A stretch of DNA of 64,000 bases from positions 1-64,000 of the IMG/VR virus record IMGVR_UViG_3300021963_005267, one strand, 5' to 3'. This DNA is from a virus. Positions 12,542 through 24,513 of this stretch are shown here, piece by piece. The notes beneath the pieces are model-generated. The model was not told where the DNA came from. It saw only the letters and a program-made list of their open reading frames with translations, and did not search any database. The number at the start of each line of letters is the position of its first letter. Positions within the stretch are counted from its first letter, which is position 1. The translations under genes were made by a program, and so were the position numbers.

Positions 12542-13050
12542 CCCAGATAATTGGACCAGCTAGGATGACGCAGATGGAATCCTCGCTCTCTCCTGCGTTC
12601 TACTAGTTCGTAGTAGTCAGGTTTGTGCGGCATCTTTTTTGGACGCATCTGTGTCTTGTCGCTCTTGCGATAGTTACAAGGTTTGCAGGCTGTGCTCAAA
12701 TTGGTCCAGGCGCTTTTCCCACCCTGTGAGATAGGAACCACGTGATCAATCGTAGCTTCGTTGTCTTTGCAAACTGTACCGCAGTATTGGCAGACGTAAC
12801 GATCTCGTAAGAAGATATTACGTTTGGTTAACCTTAATTGGTTTTTCTTTTTGAAATACTCATTTAGGATAATCACAGCAGGTACGGGCGTAGACCAACG
12901 AGCGGATCTCACGATCCAATCCTCGTGCCACTCTAGCACCCTGGCTTTTTCTAAAACCATGTATCGAATTGCTTCCTGCCATGTTACGGTAGAAAGCGGC
13001 AATAGGCTAACTGGTTGTGCGTCAGCGTTTAAAACTAATGTATCTGCCAT
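12538..13050 (-). CDS. HNH endonuclease (McrA-like)
   Basis: RDRYVCQYCG...TIDHVVP.S.GG...W.NL.TAC..CN..K. Confidence 0.92.
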   Translation of the reverse strand: MADTLVLNADAQPVSLLPLSTVTWQEAIRYMVLEKARVLEWHEDWIVRSARWSTPVPAVIILNEYFKKKNQLRLTKRNIFLRDRYVCQYCGTVCKDNEATIDHVVPISQGGKSAWTNLSTACKPCNYRKSDKTQMRPKKMPHKPDYYELVERRRERGFHLRHPSWSNYLG

Positions 13051-13103
13051 TTTAATTCACTTTGAAAAAAGTATTTAACCCTGCAAGTGTATACTCTTTT
13101 TGC

Positions 13104-13132
13104 TTGACATACAACGGTCCGTTGTATAAAAT
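13104..13132 (+). promoter_or_regulatory. sigma70-type promoter with a palindromic spacer
   Basis: TTGACA-17-TAAAAT; ATACAACGG-T-CCGTTGTAT at 13109-13127. Confidence 0.8.
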
Positions 13133-13161
13133 ATACATACTTTATTTGAAAAAGGATTAAA

Positions 13162-13572
13162 ATGGCAGTTTGGAAAATCTCAAACAAGTCCAAGAAGAAC
13201 TGCGAAGAACGTCAGTTCTGGACTAAAGACGGACAAACTATTGTTCGCATCGAAGGATTCCGTTGGGGTACATTTACTGTAGAAACAGATGATGACAATC
13301 CCCCAGAAGGCATTACTGCGGAAAATCCAGACGGAGTCGATATGTATAGTTACTCGGGTGAAAATGCTCCTAACGGTGCAGAGCTAGACATGATGGACGA
13401 TGGTTGCTACGGTGACATGGAGTTCCCTGACGACATGGACGAGGAAGAACAAGAACGTATCCAAGAAGGTTGGGATGAAGATAGCTATGACTTTATGGAA
13501 GGCGATGGTTGGGTTAACGACGAAACTGAAGCCTGGTTATTTGGTGAACTCGACATTGAAAGGATTGATTAA
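13162..13572 (+). CDS. Highly acidic hypothetical protein
   Basis: About 40 of 136 residues are D/E by hand count; SD AAGGA. Confidence 0.8.
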
Positions 13573-13573
13573 A

Positions 13574-14164
13574 ATGGCACTAGTACCAATGGTAGTTGAA
13601 TCTACAAGCAAAGGCGAGCGAGCCTATGATATCTACAGTCGTTTGCTCAAAGAGCGGATTGTTATGTTAAACGGCGAAGTAGAAGATCACATGGCCAATC
13701 TTGTAGTAGCACAACTGTTATTCTTGGAAAGCGAAAACCCAGAAAAGGATATCAATCTGTTTATTAACAGTCCTGGTGGGGTAGTTACAGCAGGAATGAG
13801 CATCTACGACACGATGCAGTTTATCAAGTGCGATGTTGCTACCTATGTAATGGGTCAGGCCTGTTCAATGGGCAGTCTATTAGCACAAGCAGGTGCAGCA
13901 GGTAAACGATTTATGTTACCCAATGCTCGTCACATGATCCATCAGCCCAGCGGCGGCGCTCGTGGACAAGCCACAGACATTCAGATTCAAGCTGAAGAGA
14001 TCCTTAAGATGAAAAAGAATCTTACAGAGATCTATGTTAAACATAACTCAAAAGGCAAGACCTATGATGAGTTTGCCCGCGACATGGAACGTGATAAGTT
14101 CATGTCAGCTCAGGAAGCTTTAGAATACGGGCTTGTTGATCAGGTTATTGACAAACGTGTTTGA
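13574..14164 (+). CDS. clpP: ATP-dependent Clp protease proteolytic subunit
   Basis: Start MALVPMVVE; [24 protein letters not shown] (Ser), MIHQP (His), ERD (Asp). Confidence 0.97.
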
Positions 14165-15338
14165 GTGCGGTGATTAGATCACTTATCATAGCGTCATCAT
14201 GAAATGGTGTAGGCGCAAAGCGTAAACGCTCTGTGCCGACATCAACCGTAGGATAGTTAATAGGCTGCACGTAGATGTTATAATCGTTTAATAAACGATC
14301 GCTCATCATTTTACATTTCTTAGCTTCGCCTACTAACAGCGGCACGATGTGAGTAGTAGAGCATTCCATTAAAGGTAATCCATTTTCTTTTAACAGAGTT
14401 TTTAATTTGTTTGCTCTTTCCTGATGCTTGACGCGAATCTCATCGTGATCTTTTAACCATTTGACAGCTGCCAGGGCACCTGCACAGGCCACAGGACTCA
14501 TACTGGTAGTAAAGATAAATCCAGCAGCCACTGAACGAATAGCATCGACGACGTCAGCATCGGCAGCTATATAACCGCCTTGGACTCCAAACGCTTTGCC
14601 TAATGTACCGTTGATTATATCAACTCGGCTTTCCAAACCTAGTTCTTCAACCTTGCCACCTCCGTGGGTGCCATAGAGTCCTACCGCGTGTACTTCGTCG
14701 ATGTAAGTGATAGCATTGTATTTGTCGGCTAAGTCGCAGATCTCTTTGATGTGTCCTACATCACCGTCCATCGAATAAACTGATTCAAATACAATACAAG
14801 GTGTTTGTCCAGTTAGAGTTACATTGATCAATTTATCTTCTAGATCTTGTAAATCATTGTGTTTAAACACAGTTTTGGCTGCACGACTATGACTCATTCC
14901 TACTATCAAACTGTTATGATTATTTTCGTCTGATAAAAAATGTATATCAGGAATGATTTTGCTAAGGGCAATCAATGTCCATTCGTTGGCTACATAAGCC
15001 GAACTGAACAACAAGGCTCTGCTTTTATTATGCAACATTGCAAGCTCATGTTCTAATGCCACGTGATAGTGGCTGGTACCCCCTATGTTGCGTGTACCAC
15101 CTGATCCAGACCCTGTTTGGTCTAAAGCGGTGTGCATGGCATCTAATACAACCTTGTTTTGACCCATGCCTAGATAATCATTTGAGCACCAATTAACTAT
15201 AGTTTTAATGTTATATGGGCCGTACCAAATTGCTTTAGGAAAATCTCCTCGCTCGCGGACGATGTCGTTAAACACACGATATTTTCCGTTATCTTTGAGA
15301 TCTTTTATTAGTTGTTTGAAAGGTTCTTTGTTGATCAT
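14145..15338 (-). CDS. hemA: 5-aminolevulinate synthase (PLP-dependent, Shemin pathway)
   Basis: [37 protein letters not shown] (PLP lysine), [16 protein letters not shown]. Confidence 0.95.
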
Positions 15339-15346
15339 AGTAAGCT

Positions 15347-15363
15347 TATTTAACCGCTAAATA
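15347..15363. promoter_or_regulatory. Back-to-back late-type promoters
   Basis: TAAATA on minus (15347-15352, toward hemA) and on plus (15358-15363, toward the structural cluster). Confidence 0.6.
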
Positions 15364-15381: not shown

Positions 15382-15633
15382 ATGGATATTGTACAACTAG
15401 ATGTGCCTTTGTTTATACGGCTGTTAGAGCTAGCACGTGAAGATGTTAAGCAAGATGCTGATTTGCACGATGTAGCAGAAGCAGTGATCAAAATGAGCCA
15501 AAATGGTCCTGTGACTATGGCAGACTATGACGAGATCGTAGCGTTTATGAATAAGCAAGGAGAACCTGCTCCTGAACAGCCCGCAGAATCTTATGATGAA
15601 CTAGATAGGATCAAGCATCTAGGAGGTCTATAA
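15382..15633 (+). CDS. Hypothetical protein
   Basis: 83 aa, SD GGAG; LDVPLFIRLLELARED motif. Confidence 0.75.
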   Translation: MDIVQLDVPLFIRLLELAREDVKQDADLHDVAEAVIKMSQNGPVTMADYDEIVAFMNKQGEPAPEQPAESYDELDRIKHLGGL

Positions 15634-16055
15634 TGGCCAACATTACTATTTCTGTACAAAGCTTTTTAAACTCAGCTAACAATCTAAGTATCACTATCGA
15701 TAATGCACAGACTGTGGCTCAATTAAAAACTGCTATCAATGCAGCTGAAAGTACTCCGACCGCTATAATGGATTTGTTTCTAAACGGAACAAAGCTAACA
15801 GATGCAACAACATTAACAGCCAGCGGATTAATCTCAGGATCATATATTAAAACATCTAACAATTTAACACAGGCTGGGCTTTGGACTAAACAGGAACGAC
15901 AAGATTATAAATTACAATTAGCAGCATTGAGAAGATCTGCAACTGGTCGTCGATCAACTTACGATGTTAACGAGCTGCCTAATCCTTATAATGGAAATGA
16001 TAGTGCTCCGGACGACGGAGCATCTACATTAGTAGTTGGCCGCCCTTGGAGTTAA
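15633..16055 (+). CDS. Ubiquitin-like (beta-grasp) domain protein with a C-terminal extension
   Basis: Residues ~3-73 align by eye to ubiquitin: [18 protein letters not shown] and [28 protein letters not shown]. Confidence 0.7.
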   Translation: [140 protein letters not shown]

Positions 16056-16058
16056 TCT

Positions 16059-16874
16059 ATGGGCGTTCGTAATAAGAATTCTACAAATTACGTCCATCCT
16101 GACGAAGCTAATATTTTAAACCTTCATAAGGCTATGGAGTATAATAGTGGCGGACAGCCTGTTGTACGAGTACAGGATTTTAACCTAGCTGTTGCTCAGG
16201 GTAAAGTACCAGGAGTCACAGGAATAAACATTTCAGGTTATCAGCCAGCCGCAGGAACGACTTTCACTCCAGCCTGGCGTGACGGAGCGTATGTTTACTT
16301 TCCTACAGCACAAGTAGTTCGGGTGTGGAGCGAGTCAGCATCCGACACTAATGTAAGTGTTCAAATTATTGGATTAGATGCTAACTACGTACTTCAAACA
16401 GAAACAGTTTTATTAAACAATGGGATAACTGGAGTACTTACTACTAAACAGTTTTTAAGAATTAATACTATTCGCCTAACACGAACTCCAAACAATTTAG
16501 GATTATTACACGCAGGTAGTAGTGATAAGGCTATAACACTAGCATACATTGGAACTGTAGCTTCGGGGCCTGAGATGGGAATAAGCCAGATGACTGTCTA
16601 CACCGTACCAGCAGGATATACATTTTATCTAACACAAAGTAATTGGTACACAGCAGGTAGCCAACCAGCTAACTATAGAAGTTGGACACAAACTCCTGAC
16701 GGACTTATTACAGTTGTTTTGAACTTTCCTTTAGTTTCTCAGTATAATTCTACAAAAGTTGTTCCTCGCCCGTACCCAGAAAAAACAGATATACAATGGC
16801 AAGTTTCAGCTTCGGGTAACGTAGCTATTGGCGGACAGATAGAAGGTTATCTGATTAGTAATAGCGTAATATAA
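16059..16874 (+). CDS. Putative virion structural protein
   Basis: 271-aa beta-rich ORF in the late cluster. Confidence 0.65.
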   Translation: MGVRNKNSTNYVHPDEANILNLHKAMEYNSGGQPVVRVQDFNLAVAQGKVPGVTGINISGYQPAAGTTFTPAWRDGAYVYFPTAQVVRVWSESASDTNVSVQIIGLDANYVLQTETVLLNNGITGVLTTKQFLRINTIRLTRTPNNLGLLHAGSSDKAITLAYIGTVASGPEMGISQMTVYTVPAGYTFYLTQSNWYTAGSQPANYRSWTQTPDGLITVVLNFPLVSQYNSTKVVPRPYPEKTDIQWQVSASGNVAIGGQIEGYLISNSVI

Positions 16875-16887
16875 GATAAGTAATAAT

Positions 16888-17151
16888 ATGAGAGCTAGAG
16901 AATTTATCATTAATGTTCCCATTAATATTAAAATTAATGGCGATGGTGATCCAGAAGTGGATGTAGCAGGTTCGGATCCCGCCAAGGATCCATCTGATCT
17001 TGACCCAAATCCTGTAATGGTACCTCCATTACAACAAGAATTAGAGCTTAAAAAAGCTGATCAAGGAAAAACTTCTCCGATAATTAAAGATCTAACACAG
17101 GACGAAGTAGAACACGATCCCCAAAATCCTATCTATAACAGACCCAGATAA
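16888..17151 (+). CDS. Hypothetical protein, putative internal head protein
   Basis: MRAREFI N-terminus, late-type ATAAGTA upstream. Confidence 0.65.
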   Translation: MRAREFIINVPINIKINGDGDPEVDVAGSDPAKDPSDLDPNPVMVPPLQQELELKKADQGKTSPIIKDLTQDEVEHDPQNPIYNRPR

Positions 17152-17173: not shown

Positions 17174-20100
17174 GTGGCATTTTTTAGAAAAATACAAGCA
17201 GGCCTAGTCAAGGCTAATATTACCGATTTTGTTGGAGAAGTAGGAACTCTCTTCTTCAATGTTGAAACCGGAGAATTGCGACTTTCTGACGGTGTAACTC
17301 CTGGTGGCTTGCCAGTCAGCGGAAATTCTACAACAGTTGTAAGCACTGTAACACCTAATAATCTTCCTAATGGTTCTTTTTGGTATAATCCTGATAATAA
17401 CGAACTTCTTGTTTATCACGACGATGGATATTCGCCTAATTGGGCCACAATTAGTGGTGGTAATGGTTCAGGAGTTAGAGGTTTCACGGGTAGTCAAGGT
17501 GTAGGATATACAGGTTCACGAGGTTCAGTAGGTTCAGTAGGCTATACTGGTAGTCTTGGTTATACTGGTAGTATTGGACCTCTAGGACCTAGAGGCAACA
17601 TCGGTTACACCGGTTCTGCCAGCACAGTAGCAGGATATACAGGATCATTAGGATATACAGGCTCTGCAGGCGCTGGCTATACAGGTAGTGCTGGATTTGT
17701 AGGAAGTCAAGGAATACAAGGACAACAGGGAAATCTAGGACCACAGGGGTATTCCGGTTCACAGGGTATTATTGGCTACACAGGTAGTCGAGGTTTTACA
17801 GGATCGCGCGGAGATCAGGGTGTAATTGGTCCTGTTGGTCTCACTGGTTCTACAGGATATATTGGCAGTAGGGGAGTCCAGGGAGAACAAGGTAGTCAAG
17901 GATTGCAAGGATTTACTGGTAGTGTTGGAGCTCAAGGACCAATGGGCTATACTGGTTCGGCCAGTACTGTAAGAGGGTATACCGGTTCAGTTGGGTTAAC
18001 AACAGGACTGACCAGCAACTTAATTAATACAATTACAGTTGACAGTGGTTATAGTATATTACCAGAAACAGATTCGCAACAGGATTTGGGATCTTTACAG
18101 AAAAAATTTAGATCTCTTTATCTGTCTTCAAATACATTATACATTGAAAACAACAAAATCACTGTCAATCAACAAGGTGAATTTTTATTCTTTGATGGAT
18201 CTAATAATCTAGTTCCTGTACACGCAAAAGAAATCTTTATTGGTAGCGAAGAAGATTCTGCATTAATTAGAAAAAATCCTGCAACTGGTCTCGTTGAACT
18301 ACTGCTCAATCCCGGAACTACAGAACAAGAAACTTATAACATTGCTATTGGTTTTACTGGTAGTCAAGGATATACCGGTAGTAGAGGTATTCCAGGAGAA
18401 TATGCAGGTCTAGGATATACTGGAAGTCAAGGAGTTATAGGATATACTGGCAGCACTGGTTATACTGGAAGTTCTGCTAAACTTACAGTTAGTCTTATAG
18501 ATAATAGTACAGTATCAAATGTATTGACTAATATTGATACAATTAGATTTGACAGTGATGCTGGATTTGACGTTACTGATTTAGGGCAAGGTGCTGTTAA
18601 AGTTGGTATGAACTCTACCTTTAAGTATTGGGTAGTAGAAGGACAAGACACCCTAGTAGCACAGGGCTTAGATACAATCAAATTAGTTGCAGGTAATAAT
18701 ATTACTTTGGTTACTAATGCTACTAATGATCCTAAGGAACTAACAATCTCAGCGAATGCACCCACTGGGTTTGTAGGATCTAAAGGTTATACCGGTAGTC
18801 AAGGATTGCAAGGATTTACTGGTAGTAAAGGTGAAATCGGAATTCGAGGCGCACCCGGGGCGGACGGTCGAGACGGACAAATTGGATACACTGGTAGTTT
18901 AGGTTATACCGGTAGTCGTGGATCAAAAGGCGATCAAGGTGATCAGGGAGCAATTGGCTATACGGGCAGTCAGGGACCGCAAGGTGATCAAGGACCTACA
19001 GGTGATACTGGAGACACCGGTTTTGTAGGAAGTAGAGGAGCATTAGGATATACTGGCAGCATTGGTTACACAGGTAGTCAAGGTATTCCAGGTGAATATG
19101 CTGCCTTAGGTTTCACAGGCAGTCAAGGAGTTATTGGATACGTTGGATCTTTTGGCTACACAGGTAGTCGGGGTATTACTGGATACACAGGGTCAATCGG
19201 AAATTTAGGATATACTGGTAGTATTGGCTACACAGGTAGTCAAGGGGTAGGATACACAGGATCTCTAGGTTATGCAGGCAGTCAAGGTGACATTGGGTAC
19301 ACCGGTTCAATAGGATATACGGGTAGTCAAGGAGTAGGATACACAGGATCACAGGGCAATATTGGATACACAGGATCACAGGGCAATATTGGATACACAG
19401 GTAGCAGAGGTATTCCAGGAGAATATGCAGGTCTAGGATATACCGGAAGTCAAGGTGACATTGGGTACACCGGTTCAATAGGATATACGGGTAGTCAAGG
19501 TATAGGATATACGGGTAGTCGAGGTAGTACTGGATTTACTGGATCGTTAGGTGACCAAGGTCCTATAGGTTATAGTGGTAGTCGTGGGTTTGTGGGTAGT
19601 CGCGGAATACAAGGTGAACAAGGTATTCAAGGTATCATTGGTTATACAGGAAGTCAAGGCGCCCAGGGCGACCAGGGCATTCAAGGTGACCAAGGTGACC
19701 AAGGCAATACAGGATTCACAGGAAGTAAAGGATTTACCGGTAGTCAAGGTATCCCAGGTGAATATGCTGCTCTAGGATATACTGGATCTCGTGGGGTTAC
19801 TGGATTTACAGGCAGTCAAGGCATTCAAGGAATTCAAGGAGTTATTGGGTATACTGGTAGTCAAGGTAATACAGGATTCACAGGAAGTAAAGGCTTTACT
19901 GGTAGTCAAGGTATCCCAGGTGAATATGCAGGTCTAGGATATACTGGATCACAAGGATATACTGGGTTTGTAGGATCCAAAGGTGATCTAGGAGACCAAG
20001 GACCTAGAGGTTATTCAGGAAGTCAAGGCGTTCAAGGCGTTCAAGGCGTTCAAGGGGACATTGGTTATACTGGCAGTCGTGGATTTACTGGTAGTCAAGG

Positions 20101-22225
20101 TATTATTGGAGTCACTGGTAATACAGGGTTTACTGGTAGCCGAGGAGTTATTGGCTACACAGGTAGTCAAGGCCTAATAGGAGACACTGGTTTTGTAGGA
20201 AGTCAAGGATCATTAGGATATACCGGTAGTATTGGCTATACAGGTAGTCAAGGTATTCCAGGTGAATATGCTGCTTTAGGATTTACAGGTAGTCAAGGCA
20301 TTCAAGGCATTCAAGGAGTTATTGGGTATACTGGTAGTCAAGGCAGTATAGGATTCACAGGAAGCAAAGGATTCACAGGTAGCATTGGTAATTTAGGATA
20401 TACTGGCAGTCAAGGTATACAGGGTATACAGGGTATACAGGGTATACAGGGAGTCATTGGTTATTCTGGCAGTTTAGGTTATACAGGTAGTCAAGGACAA
20501 CAAGGGGATGTTGGTTTTGTAGGAAGTCGAGGACTAACTGGTTTTACAGGTAGCAGAGGTATTCCGGGAGAGTTTGCTGGTTTAGGTTACACTGGGTCGA
20601 TAGGATTTACTGGTTCCAAAGGAGAAAAAGGAGACCCAGACGGATACACCGGTAGTAGAGGCTATACAGGCAGCGAAGGATACACAGGATCTAAAGGAGA
20701 TCTTGGAGATCAAGGCCTTAGAGGTTTCACAGGTAGTCAAGGTGTTCAAGGTGTTCAAGGCGATCAGGGATCAGAAGGATACGCCGGTAGTAGAGGATAT
20801 ACAGGTAGCCAAGGATTTACAGGGGCACAGGGTCTTGTAGGATATACCGGTAGTAGAGGATATACAGGCAGCAGAGGATCACAAGGTATACAAGGAGACC
20901 TTGGTTATACTGGCAGTGAAGGATCTCAAGGCCCCCAAGGCGACACTGGTTATACTGGATCTGCCAGTACTGTGATAGGTTTCACAGGTAGTCAGGGAGT
21001 CAACGGATATACCGGCAGTCAGGGATTTACAGGAAGTGTTGGTTATACTGGATCTGCCAGTACTGTGATAGGTTTCACAGGTAGTCAGGGAGTCAACGGA
21101 TATACCGGCAGTCAGGGAGTCAACGGATATACCGGCAGTAGAGGGTTCCTTGGATCACAAGGTATTGTCGGCCCTATTGGTTTTACCGGATCACGAGGCA
21201 ATATTGGTTATACGGGTTCACAAGGCGACATTGGACCTATTGGTTACACCGGCAGTAAAGGTGATATTGGATTCACTGGCAGTGTTGGATTTGTAGGATC
21301 AAGAGGTGCCGACGGAGTCATAGGTCAAGATGGTTATACTGGATCACAGGGCAATATTGGATACACAGGATCAAGAGGTATTGACGGAGTCATAGGTCAA
21401 GATGGTTATACTGGATCACAGGGCAATATTGGATATACCGGATCAAGAGGTATTGACGGAGTCATAGGTCGAGATGGATATACTGGATCAAGAGGTGCCG
21501 ACGGAGTCATAGGTCGAGATGGCTATACAGGTTCACAAGGCAATATTGGTTATACTGGATCAAGAGGTGCCGACGGAGTCATAGGTCGAGATGGTTATAC
21601 TGGTAGTCAAGGTATCCCAGGTGAATATGCAGGTCTGGGTTATACTGGATCAAGAGGTAATATTGGTTATACCGGATCACAGGGCAATATTGGTTATACT
21701 GGATCAAGAGGTGCCGACGGAGTCATAGGTCGAGATGGTTATACCGGATCACAGGGCAATATTGGTTATACTGGATCAAGAGGTATTGCTGGAGAATATG
21801 CAGCTCTAGGTTACACAGGATCACAGGGCAATATTGGATACACAGGATCACAGGGCAATATTGGATACACAGGTAGTCAAGGAACCACAGGTTTTACAGG
21901 TAGTATTGGTGTTACTGGTTATACGGGATCAAGAGGATTACAAGGAACTGGATTAAACATTACAGGATTTGTTGGATCAAGTGCAGCATTGTCTAATCAA
22001 TATAACGGCACAATAGGAGACGGGTATCTAGCAGTTAATACCGGTAATCTATGGATATGGAACGGAAGTCTGTGGACAGATGTTGGCCAAATAAGGGGAT
22101 ATACAGGCAGTGCAGGCACAGGCGGTGGCGGTGGTGCAGCTAATTTTGGTAATCTTGATGGCGGTTTGCCTAACAGTAACTATGGCGGAATACAGAGCAT
22201 AGATGCTGGCGGAGTCACAGCATAA
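17174..22225 (+). CDS. Large collagen-like fibre protein (GYTGS/GFTGS Gly-X-Y repeats)
   Basis: 1683 aa, GTG start; Mtd_N-like N-terminus, long Gly-X-Y tracts dominated by GYT-GSQ, two internal globular segments. Confidence 0.9.
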   Translation: MAFFRKIQAGLVKANITDFVGEVGTLFFNVETGELRLSDGVTPGGLPVSGNSTTVVSTVTPNNLPNGSFWYNPDNNELLVYHDDGYSPNWATISGGNGSGVRGFTGSQGVGYTGSRGSVGSVGYTGSLGYTGSIGPLGPRGNIGYTGSASTVAGYTGSLGYTGSAGAGYTGSAGFVGSQGIQGQQGNLGPQGYSGSQGIIGYTGSRGFTGSRGDQGVIGPVGLTGSTGYIGSRGVQGEQGSQGLQGFTGSVGAQGPMGYTGSASTVRGYTGSVGLTTGLTSNLINTITVDSGYSILPETDSQQDLGSLQKKFRSLYLSSNTLYIENNKITVNQQGEFLFFDGSNNLVPVHAKEIFIGSEEDSALIRKNPATGLVELLLNPGTTEQETYNIAIGFTGSQGYTGSRGIPGEYAGLGYTGSQGVIGYTGSTGYTGSSAKLTVSLIDNSTVSNVLTNIDTIRFDSDAGFDVTDLGQGAVKVGMNSTFKYWVVEGQDTLVAQGLDTIKLVAGNNITLVTNATNDPKELTISANAPTGFVGSKGYTGSQGLQGFTGSKGEIGIRGAPGADGRDGQIGYTGSLGYTGSRGSKGDQGDQGAIGYTGSQGPQGDQGPTGDTGDTGFVGSRGALGYTGSIGYTGSQGIPGEYAALGFTGSQGVIGYVGSFGYTGSRGITGYTGSIGNLGYTGSIGYTGSQGVGYTGSLGYAGSQGDIGYTGSIGYTGSQGVGYTGSQGNIGYTGSQGNIGYTGSRGIPGEYAGLGYTGSQGDIGYTGSIGYTGSQGIGYTGSRGSTGFTGSLGDQGPIGYSGSRGFVGSRGIQGEQGIQGIIGYTGSQGAQGDQGIQGDQGDQGNTGFTGSKGFTGSQGIPGEYAALGYTGSRGVTGFTGSQGIQGIQGVIGYTGSQGNTGFTGSKGFTGSQGIPGEYAGLGYTGSQGYTGFVGSKGDLGDQGPRGYSGSQGVQGVQGVQGDIGYTGSRGFTGSQGIIGVTGNTGFTGSRGVIGYTGSQGLIGDTGFVGSQGSLGYTGSIGYTGSQGIPGEYAALGFTGSQGIQGIQGVIGYTGSQGSIGFTGSKGFTGSIGNLGYTGSQGIQGIQGIQGIQGVIGYSGSLGYTGSQGQQGDVGFVGSRGLTGFTGSRGIPGEFAGLGYTGSIGFTGSKGEKGDPDGYTGSRGYTGSEGYTGSKGDLGDQGLRGFTGSQGVQGVQGDQGSEGYAGSRGYTGSQGFTGAQGLVGYTGSRGYTGSRGSQGIQGDLGYTGSEGSQGPQGDTGYTGSASTVIGFTGSQGVNGYTGSQGFTGSVGYTGSASTVIGFTGSQGVNGYTGSQGVNGYTGSRGFLGSQGIVGPIGFTGSRGNIGYTGSQGDIGPIGYTGSKGDIGFTGSVGFVGSRGADGVIGQDGYTGSQGNIGYTGSRGIDGVIGQDGYTGSQGNIGYTGSRGIDGVIGRDGYTGSRGADGVIGRDGYTGSQGNIGYTGSRGADGVIGRDGYTGSQGIPGEYAGLGYTGSRGNIGYTGSQGNIGYTGSRGADGVIGRDGYTGSQGNIGYTGSRGIAGEYAALGYTGSQGNIGYTGSQGNIGYTGSQGTTGFTGSIGVTGYTGSRGLQGTGLNITGFVGSSAALSNQYNGTIGDGYLAVNTGNLWIWNGSLWTDVGQIRGYTGSAGTGGGGGAANFGNLDGGLPNSNYGGIQSIDAGGVTA
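20024..21860 (+). repeat. In-frame tandem repeats within the collagen gene
   Basis: (CAAGGCGTT)x3 at 20024, (GGTATACAG)x4 at 20414, and near-identical GGATCAAGAGGT...GACGGAGTCATAGGTC blocks at ~21296-21740. Confidence 0.85.
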
Positions 22226-22254: not shown

Positions 22255-24513
22255 ATGGCCATACAAATACAGTTTAGACGAGGTACAGCAGCCGAATGGA
22301 CATCGGTTAATCCCATTCTTGCCGAAGGAGAAATGGGTATTGAAACCGACACCAATCTTTTTAAAATTGGAAATGGTAATGATACCTGGACAAGTTTACC
22401 CTACGGCGGGTTACGAGGATATAGCGGTAGCTCAGGATACACTGGCAGTATAGGAAATATATCAGTTGCTAACGTTCTTTATGTAAGTAAAAGTGGTAAT
22501 GATTCAAACAGCGGAACTAGCCTTAATCTAAGCAAACTAACAATTAAAGCAGCTCTTCAGATAGCCACTAACGGAACTACTATTTTTGTTAAAAGTGGTG
22601 ACTATACTGAAATTAACCCAATCACTGTTCCAGAGGGGGTGGCTGTGGTTGGAGACAGTCTTAGAACAGTTACAGTTAGACCTCAAACTAAAACCACAGA
22701 TTTATTTTATGTAAACAACGGTGCATATCTTGCACACATGACATTTAAAGATCATGAAAGCCCTGCTGCCGCAGTATCTTTTAATCCCGATGGATCAGCA
22801 GGAGTTATTCATACTAGTCCTTATGTACAAAACTGTACTAGCATGACTACTACAGGTACAGGTATGAGAGTAGACGGAGCACACGCCGGCGGACTACGTA
22901 GTATGGTCGTTGATGCTTATACACAGTATAATCAAGGTGGAATAGGTATACATCATAAAAATAGAGGTAACACACAGTTAGTGTCAGTGTTTACAATCTG
23001 CTGCGATGTTGCTGTACTTTGCGAAAGTGGCGGATTCTGTAGTCTAACTAATAGTAACAGCAGCTTTGGTAATTACGGACTGAAAGCAGACGGTGTAAGT
23101 TCTACACTGTATTCTGGAAAAGTTAACGGCGCTGCTAATGGAAGAACATTTGTTATAGATAATCTAACTATTAGACCTAACGTTGGTGATGCTGTTAAAT
23201 TTACCGGAGATACTACTTATTATACACTTGCATCTAGCACAGCCTTTACCAGCGGTGCAACAACTATCACTTATCCAAGTTATACCTCTGAACCAGCTGA
23301 TGCTAGAAACCTTAGACAGAACGTATTAGATGCAAAAAGTAAAATACAAATTGATGTTATAGATTATCTAAACGAAACTTATCCTAATTTTAATTTTAAT
23401 CAATTTAAATGTAGTAGAGATGTTGGCCTTATCATAGATGCAGTAGTAGATGATATGGTGTTCAATACAAATTATAAATCAATTCAGGCAGGTATCAGCT
23501 ATTACAGGGGCACTGCTAGTGAAGTTATTAACAATCAAAAAACAGAAACCATTGCAGGTATCAATTTTGCTAGAGATGCGGTGCTAGATATATTGAGTTC
23601 TGACAGTACACAAGGACCAGAGTATACAAGAGTTCAAACTAATTTTAACACCATTACAAATATTATTAATAGTGGACTAAGTGCAGCACCATCCTACGCA
23701 TTTAATAATCCAATAGGAACAACTACAAATAGAGCAAGAGCTAAAACAATATTACAGGCTAATCGTAGTTTTCTAATTGAAGAAGGAATCGCTTATATAA
23801 CTGCAAACTACTCTGGACTAAGTTATGATTCTACAAAGTGTCGCAGAGATATCGGATATATTGTAGATGCAGTAACCTATGATATGCTCTATGGCGGCAA
23901 TAGTCAAACTGCTGATGCTGCTGATGAATATTATAGTACAGGAACATTACAAGTTCCAACAGGTGAAAAACAAGCTACTATTGATACATTTGCTTATTTA
24001 AAAACTGTAGTTGCTCAATGTCTAGTCAATACATCTGTTACAAGATTGAATAATTCTGTTAATCAAAATACTGCGAATCCAGCAGCTTCTAATACTGAAG
24101 TAGACATTTGTAATGGATTGTTTGATATAGTAACTAATCTAATTACTAATGCTTATTCTAGCACCATCACTTTAGAAGAATCTGTACCAGAACAAATAGC
24201 AGACAATGCCGCAGTGACATTCCATCAATTCAGTTTAATTACAGCATCGGGACAAACATTTGAATGGGTTGGCGCCGGAACTAATGTAAATACAGCCCTA
24301 CCATATCTTGGTGGTATTCCTGTGTCCGAAAATCAAGTGGTACAAGTTAATCAAGGAAAAGTATATTATACCGGAACTGATCAAAGAGGTGACTTTAGAA
24401 TAGGTAACGATTTAATAATTAATAGAAACACGGGAACTATCACTGGAAGAACATTTACCAAAAGTTTATTTGCCGTTATGACCCCTTATATATTAGCAAT
24501 TGGAGAAAAATAA
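22255..24513 (+). CDS. Structural protein: Mtd_N-like domain, beta-helix region and two helical CxRD repeats
   Basis: IQFRRGTAAEWTSVNPILAEGEMGIETDT..FKIGNG; YVSKSGNDSNSG; KCSRDVG and KCRRDIG repeats. Confidence 0.85.
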   Translation: MAIQIQFRRGTAAEWTSVNPILAEGEMGIETDTNLFKIGNGNDTWTSLPYGGLRGYSGSSGYTGSIGNISVANVLYVSKSGNDSNSGTSLNLSKLTIKAALQIATNGTTIFVKSGDYTEINPITVPEGVAVVGDSLRTVTVRPQTKTTDLFYVNNGAYLAHMTFKDHESPAAAVSFNPDGSAGVIHTSPYVQNCTSMTTTGTGMRVDGAHAGGLRSMVVDAYTQYNQGGIGIHHKNRGNTQLVSVFTICCDVAVLCESGGFCSLTNSNSSFGNYGLKADGVSSTLYSGKVNGAANGRTFVIDNLTIRPNVGDAVKFTGDTTYYTLASSTAFTSGATTITYPSYTSEPADARNLRQNVLDAKSKIQIDVIDYLNETYPNFNFNQFKCSRDVGLIIDAVVDDMVFNTNYKSIQAGISYYRGTASEVINNQKTETIAGINFARDAVLDILSSDSTQGPEYTRVQTNFNTITNIINSGLSAAPSYAFNNPIGTTTNRARAKTILQANRSFLIEEGIAYITANYSGLSYDSTKCRRDIGYIVDAVTYDMLYGGNSQTADAADEYYSTGTLQVPTGEKQATIDTFAYLKTVVAQCLVNTSVTRLNNSVNQNTANPAASNTEVDICNGLFDIVTNLITNAYSSTITLEESVPEQIADNAAVTFHQFSLITASGQTFEWVGAGTNVNTALPYLGGIPVSENQVVQVNQGKVYYTGTDQRGDFRIGNDLIINRNTGTITGRTFTKSLFAVMTPYILAIGEK

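Follow-up and report, generated by a model that had tools for sequence, protein, structure and literature searches.

A ubiquitin-family beta-grasp domain joined to a conserved helix+GRPW module in a widespread protein family of uncultured bacteriophages

Ubiquitin-proper domains, i.e. those of the PF00240 type, are regarded as eukaryotic or archaeal, and ubiquitin-like (Ubl) domains that are not conjugated are common in eukaryotes. The present analysis deals with a bacteriophage gene encoding a 140-residue protein with a ubiquitin fold, located in a stretch of 64,000 nucleotides (hereafter the window) corresponding to positions 1 to 64,000 of the IMG/VR virus record IMGVR_UViG_3300021963_005267, itself 106,583 bp long and judged about 30% complete. 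In phages, beta-grasp domains are already known from tail assembly, namely in lambda gpI and in Mu-like tail proteins (PMC1779556; PMC1949818). The lambda protein, also designated tail assembly protein I (TAPI), is ThiS/MoaD-like, exhibits a conserved Gly ending the beta-grasp as well as a Gly-rich linker, and is paired with gpK, a protein associating JAB and NlpC/P60 domains; a role in assembly was proposed for TAPI, which is not found in the mature tail (PMC1779556). On the bacterial side, a preprint reports that the Bil system conjugates a Ubl to the central tail fibre of phages (bioRxiv 10.1101/2023.09.04.556158).

With respect to these systems, the novelty of the locus lies in a ubiquitin-proper domain borne by a widespread bacteriophage family, linked to a docking-like module not described before, on which lectin domains can be swapped, and devoid of a JAB partner. 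The literature search found no paper describing this family, and every name encountered in the source databases was either "hypothetical protein" or an obvious misnomer.

The two halves of the protein

A preliminary description, drawn from the sequence alone, had placed a eukaryote-like ubiquitin fold at 15633-16055, and an open reading frame (ORF) of 140 amino acids (aa) is indeed present on the plus strand at exactly these positions, with the sequence then quoted. It is a real gene under purifying selection, which bears on both halves of the protein with ratios of non-synonymous to synonymous substitution (dN/dS) of 0.05 and 0.04 against the closest relative, the median over 43 pairs being 0.10.

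The ubiquitin resemblance of the N-terminal half, residues 1-78, goes well beyond chance and is confirmed as that of a ubiquitin-family beta-grasp, as sequence profiles, phmmer and structure prediction all agree. Over residues 13-72, hmmscan gave PF00240 a score of 25.1 bits (E=1.5e-5), just short of the Pfam gathering threshold of 25.4 bits; a six-frame search gave 26.0 bits for the same protein, and the relatives P0121, P0131 and P0158 reached 33.9-38.5 bits. By this measure the family passes the threshold and the window's own member is borderline. A profile built from 41 members matched ubiquitin monomers of the PDB at E of about 1e-6, ISG15 at 3e-8 and a viral ubiquitin at 1e-7, and eukaryotic polyubiquitins were recovered by phmmer among 1.8 billion representatives. 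The AlphaFold2 model of the 140-aa protein (alignment A1) has a mean predicted local distance difference test score (pLDDT) of 83 and a predicted template modelling score of 0.76; residues 1-80 reach a pLDDT of 94-98 and display the order beta-beta-alpha-beta-beta-(3-10)-beta. Comparison by Foldseek with ubiquitin, a check that had been proposed along with the ubiquitin claim, and with NEDD8, ISG15 and SUMO gave template modelling (TM) scores of 0.85-0.92 with a root-mean-square deviation (rmsd) of 1.0-1.5 Å over 73-75 residues, and the predicted fold is a beta-grasp. An independent all-against-all structural search (VIA) yielded Z scores up to 14.1 and rmsd values of 1.1-3.1 Å over 75-79 residues, where 50 of the 50 matches listed are eukaryote-type ubiquitin or Ubl entries. 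Structures of ThiS, MoaD and bacterial Ubls are absent from the fold matches listed, which are the top ones and may leave out weaker similarities.

Across the family, the invariant residues of this domain are Q9, S10, N13 and K32, and its most conserved stretch is the beta1-beta2 loop VQS[FL][LI]N, which is longer than that of ubiquitin. In the ungapped HMMER alignment, where the profile position equals the ubiquitin position plus 5, the invariant K32 aligns with K27, a buried structural lysine of ubiquitin, and the equivalents of K11, K29, K33, K48 and K63 hold no lysine. The equivalents of H68 and V70 in the I44 patch are K73 and S75. As had been noted beforehand, there is no terminal Gly-Gly: Q80-A81 stand at the positions of G75-G76, no conserved Gly occupies this point in the alignment of 41 relatives, and a conserved helix continues the chain. 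Regarding the conjugation machinery, neither the window's record nor three complete relatives of 355-360 kb yielded a match to the Pfam models for a ThiF-type E1, Prok-JAB or JAB; the search for an E2 with UQ_con gave no match, the control being also silent everywhere. Conjugatable Ubls of type 1 (ubiquitin, NEDD8, SUMO, ISG15 and BilA) are defined by an exposed or processable C-terminal Gly(-Gly) right behind the last strand and by a cognate E1 (ThiF), E2 and deconjugating peptidase encoded alongside. Neither the Gly-Gly nor a ThiF or JAB is present here, and the phage protein would accordingly fall outside this type as judged from its sequence.

The C-terminal half, residues 83-140, consists of a helix followed by a peptide ending in GRPW. 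The tail ending in GRPWS announced in the preliminary description is present, measures roughly 60 residues and proves to be the most conserved part of the family. Indeed, most of the family-invariant residues sit in this half, i.e. R89, Q90, K93, L94, R101, L115, P116, Y119, L133, R137, P138 and W139 for the module itself. In the AlphaFold2 model, the helix 86-104 has a pLDDT of about 85 and the remaining tail is extended, at 48-72. The model of a 293-aa relative in BFVD superposes over all 140 residues with a TM score of 0.89, so that in both of these independent predictions the 140 residues behave as one unit. The helix+GRPW module matched no Pfam or PHROG family, the 140-aa protein as a whole has no family in PHROGs, and the ESM Atlas returned no usable match for the tail.

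Family, architectures and gene neighbourhood

A search restricted to near-length proteins recovered 289 protein clusters at E<=0.01, 208 representatives were counted at the 50% identity level, and 302 loci were confirmed in IMG/VR. The contigs bearing the family reach 355-360 kb; three are rated complete, one of these with terminal repeats. In one complete genome, the large terminase adjoining the gene shares 48-51% identity with those of PA5oct, Phosso and Atu_ph07, which are T4-like jumbo myoviruses. The gene is present in a single copy in each of the four genomes searched, and near-identical DNA was found in marine, estuary, aquatic and freshwater metagenomes from several studies.

The short form with a Ubl domain and tail, as encoded in the window, represents the majority. 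In many relatives, a lectin-like domain directly follows GRPW, namely Laminin_G_3, ILEI or GLEYA/PA14, starting at the position of the stop codon in the short form. In P0199, P0218 and P0242, the helix+GRPW stands alone at the N-terminus (residues 9-66), followed by Laminin_G_3, and in P0138 a long N-terminal extension precedes the Ubl+tail unit. In three further loci (L089-L091), the same slot, after the small acidic gene and before the gene with the N-terminal motif described below, is occupied by a GRPW-module protein without recognisable ubiquitin domain. Occurring without the ubiquitin domain both as an N-terminus and in the same slot, the GRPW module is the constant element of the family, the ubiquitin and lectin domains being exchangeable additions to it.

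Some individual cases deserve description. At L090:5728-6816 and L091:5728-6816, the protein is 362 aa long, its first ~90 residues do not match the ubiquitin profile, and GRPW then Laminin_G_3 follow. A stand-alone GRPW module of 73 aa is encoded at L096:5980-6201 on a 49.5-kb viral contig, where its neighbour is a 657-aa protein whose start resembles a signal peptide and none of the usual neighbours is present. An ILEI/FAM3-type domain (PF15711, E=1e-11), otherwise annotated from animals, closes the long forms at L013:8001-8861 and at 13 further loci; by tblastn, the sole cultured-phage match to the ILEI domain of a long form was the tail protein Pb4 of Alteromonas podophages. Lectin domains of the concanavalin fold, Laminin G3 among them, have been linked in jumbo phages to tail fibres and further virion components (PMC7824862).

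Table 1. Features of the ubiquitin-fold locus, with positions in the window
Feature	Position	Strand	Description
TAAATA motif	15358..15363	+	About 19 nt ahead of the string's first ORF; read in the sequence, may be the core of a T4-type late promoter
Acidic 83-aa ORF	15382..15633	+	Upstream ORF; stop codon overlaps the ATG of the ubiquitin-fold gene (TAATG)
AGGAGG ribosome-binding site	15621..15626	+	Of the ubiquitin-fold gene; 7 nt 5' of the ATG, read in the sequence
Ubiquitin-fold gene	15633-16055	+	140 aa; from the ORF list; carries the sequence quoted in the preliminary description
Ubiquitin-family beta-grasp	15633..15866	+	Residues 1-78; Pfam PF00240, AlphaFold2, Foldseek and PDB profile matches
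C-terminal module	15879..16052	+	Residues 83-140; helix 86-104 (TKxxRQxxKLxLAxLxR), then LPxxYxGN...GRPW
Stop codon of the ubiquitin-fold gene	16053..16055	+	One residue past GRPW; lectin-like domain starts here in long relatives
271-aa gene	16059..16874	+	Starts 3 nt past the ubiquitin-fold stop; N-terminal motif NSTNYxHPxExNLLNLHKAMEY; phrog_8198
87-aa ORF	16888..17151	+	Resembles, by eye, the small acidic proteins preceding the ubiquitin-fold gene in relatives
1683-aa collagen-like fibre protein	17174..22225	+	GYTGS repeats; first large fibre gene
752-aa protein	22255-24513		Pfam Mtd_N domain

In the window, the ubiquitin-fold gene comes second in a tightly packed plus-strand string whose members overlap or stand 3 nt apart (Table 1), and no plus-strand terminator-like site was found between 15200 and 17400. 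The gene had been described as heading a fibre cluster, which is correct for the window: downstream of it come the 271-aa gene and the 1683-aa collagen-like gene, followed by those for an Mtd_N protein, a Collagen protein and a Peptidase_S74 fibre. The TAAATA motif ahead of the string is a partial match only to the T4 late-promoter 8-mer TATAAATA, and the full 8-mer TATAAATA shows no enrichment in the window, with 3 occurrences found against 5.8 expected; a T4-type late promoter before the gene string may be suggested from TAAATA. The first ORF of the string, of 83 aa, has no significant Pfam or PHROG family and is conserved only in the closest relative (L002). Further upstream, a 397-aa ORF lies on the opposite strand at 14145-15338, and a bona fide clpP is located two genes 5' of the ubiquitin-fold gene at 13400-14164. 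The start of the 1683-aa protein (MAFFRKIQAGL) is, by eye, loosely like the conserved MAIIQISKIQ N-terminus of large fibres flanking the gene in another group of relatives (window 17174-17300 and 22255-22380; L050:1493-1620).

As established by ORF clustering over 77 loci, the recurrent gene order is an acidic protein of about 100 aa, the ubiquitin-fold gene, a protein of 450-700 aa, then a further large protein or the large terminase. The small acidic proteins (87-118 aa) share, by eye, a common start of the MRAxE(I/F)I type and an MVPPLQQ-like motif; their genes precede the ubiquitin-fold gene in 40 of 77 relatives (e.g. L025:7699-7998; L090:5372-5728), and in the window the acidic-like ORF 16888-17151 is placed after the 271-aa gene instead. 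The proteins encoded downstream share their first ~40 residues only (N-[ST]-T-x-Y-x-H-P-x-E-x-N-L-L-x-L-H-x-A-M-x-Y, hereafter the N-motif), their bodies being variable. In at least 47 of 80 loci, the N-motif begins directly 3' of the ubiquitin-fold gene, as counted with a six-frame hidden Markov model search, and a divergent second form of the motif occurs in some additional loci. As seen in alignment A2 (window 16059-16180 and 47 related loci), it fronts otherwise unrelated bodies of 270-860 aa. In its distribution the N-motif resembles an attachment peptide common to interchangeable virion proteins.

The bodies of the N-motif genes match PHROG families designated "virion structural protein", and have homologues in T4-like cyanophages, a few records of which annotate them as virion structural or tail fibre and where they are located in the g16-g17 island. 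In S-RSM4 (L084, 4732-5771) and S-RIM12 (L100, 6512-8167), the body homologues occupy this variable island, which separates the small terminase gene g16 from the large terminase gene g17, and a small unrelated hypothetical gene lies ahead of each homologue. These cyanophage homologues have neither the N-motif nor a GRPW-module neighbour, and no hidden analogue of the GRPW module was found upstream of the homologous genes in S-RSM4, S-RIM12 and MA01. In the window, the 271-aa protein matched no Pfam family and only the unnamed phrog_8198 in PHROGs; its body is homologous to cyanophage proteins, mostly hypothetical with a few named "tail fiber protein". Its own family comprises 2455 metagenome clusters at E<=1e-5, the top 120 being all at least 67% identical, on contigs of up to 360 kb. 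The AlphaFold2 model of the 271-aa protein has a mean pLDDT of 38.7, too low for use, from a shallow alignment of about 70% identity. The prediction of a complex between the 140-aa protein and the first 70 residues of the downstream protein scored 0.04, the mark being 0.32, a value that speaks neither for nor against an association.

A different group of loci has the gene flanked on one side by a tail-fibre-like gene and on the other by an Mtd_N-type fibre that bears a Peptidase_G2 chaperone domain, and in six loci it directly precedes the terminase. In the complete relative L008, a ClpX-like AAA+ gene with an N-terminal zinc-ribbon match (12863-14071) and an Hsp20 gene (14638-15075) are located downstream of the ubiquitin-fold gene.

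Proposed role and rival explanations

The best explanation at hand, to which a probability of about 0.5 is given, is that of a late, virion-associated adaptor or decoration protein, which docks through its GRPW module and exposes the ubiquitin fold as a domain that is not conjugated. It would be a two-part protein from an uncultured aquatic T4-like jumbo myovirus, probably late-expressed. Its first part (residues 1-78), a true ubiquitin-family beta-grasp, would act as an integral domain comparable to those of eukaryotic UBL-domain proteins, and is read as non-conjugated because Gly-Gly is missing, only the K27-equivalent lysine is kept and neither ThiF nor JAB is encoded in the three complete relatives. 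The second part (residues 83-140), with its amphipathic helix and its LPxxYxGN...GRPW peptide, would be the docking element onto the virion fibre apparatus, the anchoring point being most likely the virion-structural protein of the adjoining gene or its vicinity, and the ubiquitin fold would serve as a small, stable, exposed domain. A lectin domain after GRPW (Laminin_G_3, ILEI or PA14/GLEYA) may turn relatives into auxiliary adhesins, the window copy being the minimal and commonest form. The fold, the missing conjugation features, the domain architectures, the synteny and the purifying selection are demonstrated here, and from them we infer the presence in the virion, the docking through GRPW and the identity of the partner. 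One suggestion of the preliminary description, a virion decoration domain, agrees with this explanation in view of the structural and fibre neighbours, the lectin fusions and the lack of a conjugation signature.

Several points weigh against the adaptor or decoration role. Support for a place in the virion is indirect, coming from the structural neighbours, the lectin fusions and the late-type gene string, and the family's ubiquitin+GRPW unit is found in no cultured phage (tblastn with short and long forms against 50,697 phage records). The N-motif neighbour is missing or undetected in about one third of the loci, and no co-variation between the tail sequence and the two N-motif classes was visible by eye. 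In one complete genome, the surroundings of the gene are non-structural, with ribonucleotide reductase, endolysin-like, methyltransferase, ClpX-like ATPase and Hsp20 genes. The late-promoter assignment is based on a motif of 6 nt. Besides, the invariant VQSxLN loop suggests a specific binding surface, so that the notion of an exposed stable domain may understate the role of the ubiquitin fold.

The main rival, which is considered unlikely, is an assembly factor that would help the fibre protein encoded next to it to fold, trimerise or attach and would leave afterwards, in line with the role put forward for the lambda tail assembly protein I. In lambdoid and T1-like phages, a tail assembly protein bearing a Ubl is indeed encoded next to the fibre that determines host specificity (PMC1779556), the phage gene is tightly coupled to the downstream structural gene, and the short form itself lacks a receptor-binding domain. 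Yet lectin fusions would be pointless on a protein discarded before release, and the gene is also found without an adjoining fibre gene, directly before the terminase; moreover, the signature of the lambda protein is missing, i.e. there is no conserved C-terminal Gly, no JAB/NlpC-P60 partner and no Lambda_tail_I among the Pfam matches at E<=1. The preliminary description had put forward mainly a counter-defence decoy. In this reading, an unconjugatable Ubl would block the E1/E2 or deubiquitinase of Bil-type systems or of type II CBASS (cyclic-oligonucleotide-based antiphage signalling system), or would shield the fibre protein. A Gly-Gly-less ubiquitin fold encoded among fibre genes, with an invariant beta1-beta2 loop as expected of a binding surface, fits with this idea, as does the reported conjugation of a Ubl to the central tail fibre by Bil (bioRxiv 10.1101/2023.09.04.556158). 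However, it is the ubiquitin domain that the family can dispense with, both the gene slot and the GRPW module persisting in its absence; the lectin fusions point outside the cell and make little sense for a decoy of intracellular enzymes; the nearest structural matches listed are eukaryote-type ubiquitin and Ubls; and the gene belongs to a late-type structural string, not to a set of early anti-defence genes. PADLOC returned no match at E<=1 for the protein, one long relative and two neighbours, which bears weakly on the decoy idea as this resource covers defence rather than anti-defence proteins. With no positive support and with the GRPW module rather than the Ubl conserved everywhere, the decoy proposal is not supported and is now very improbable, though the invariant loop and the targeting of tail fibres by Bil still speak for it.

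Scarcely credible is an adaptor for a phage-encoded Clp protease, where the Ubl domain would deliver or recognise ClpP/ClpX substrates by analogy with the UBL shuttle factors of the proteasome. It would account for the clpP two genes upstream in the window and for the ClpX-like AAA+ and Hsp20 genes five to seven genes downstream in a complete relative, but such linkage is rare, with ClpP in 3 and ClpX-like genes in 2 of some 77-80 loci, and conservation among the neighbours is limited to the small acidic protein and the virion-structural gene. No Clp protease is known to recognise ubiquitin folds. The more speculative view that a phage-borne ubiquitin fold on or beside the fibres is a shield or mimic against conjugation immunity of the Bil type, where phages are disabled by the tagging of a tail fibre protein, or a handle for the phage Clp machinery, is distinctly improbable; if true, it would be the first bacteriophage-encoded counter-measure or signalling device based on ubiquitin.

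Beyond the choice between these explanations, a large unannotated family, counting at least 289 clusters and 302 viral loci, has incorporated a ubiquitin-type fold as a fixed component, and provides a data point on how early and in which roles ubiquitin-like folds served outside conjugation. If the docking of the GRPW module holds true, the family would represent a new plug-in system for auxiliary adhesins in abundant uncultured giant phages, and would offer a handle for predicting what these phages bind.

Comparison with known systems

The integral UBL domains of eukaryotes (Dsk2, Rad23, parkin) and ubiquitin itself resemble the phage domain in topology, with about 19-25% identity and the invariant lysine equivalent to K27; integral UBL domains are, like it, not conjugated modifiers and are followed by other modules. 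In contrast to ubiquitin, the phage-encoded domain has a beta1-beta2 loop about four residues longer, with the invariant VQSxLN, and the phage protein exhibits K73/S75 at H68/V70, lacks Gly-Gly and carries the helix+GRPW partner module. As for the lambda tail assembly protein I, it likewise associates an N-terminal Ubl beta-grasp with a small C-terminal module and is encoded beside host-specificity fibre genes (PMC1779556), whereas the phage family is of the ubiquitin-proper type, without conserved Gly and without JAB in the three complete genomes.

Bil/Bub and related operons encoding E1, E2 and deubiquitinase share with the family the presence of Ubl folds in a phage-bacterium setting, and Bil acts on tail fibres. 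The Ubls of these operons have a terminal Gly and come with genes for E1, E2 and deubiquitinase, while the phage protein has no Gly-Gly, no such neighbours and no PADLOC match.

Virus-encoded members of the ubiquitin family are otherwise represented by the baculovirus v-ubiquitin and the Ubls of giant viruses. The family profile matches the 6kna chain, deposited as "Viral ubiquitin" and of baculoviral origin, at E=1e-7, and the fold matches in BFVD include many giant-virus Ubls. The v-ubiquitin is present in budded virions. These viral proteins are close copies of host ubiquitin with Gly-Gly, in eukaryotic hosts endowed with conjugation machinery, whereas the phage family is deeply diverged, devoid of Gly-Gly and carried by viruses that infect bacteria.

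Finally, the decoration protein Hoc of T4 associates Ig-like domains with a C-terminal capsid-binding domain. It has no sequence or fold relation to the phage protein and the analogy is functional only, in that both may follow the same logic of small, stable, exposed domains combined with a separate virion-binding module and sometimes contributing to adhesion.

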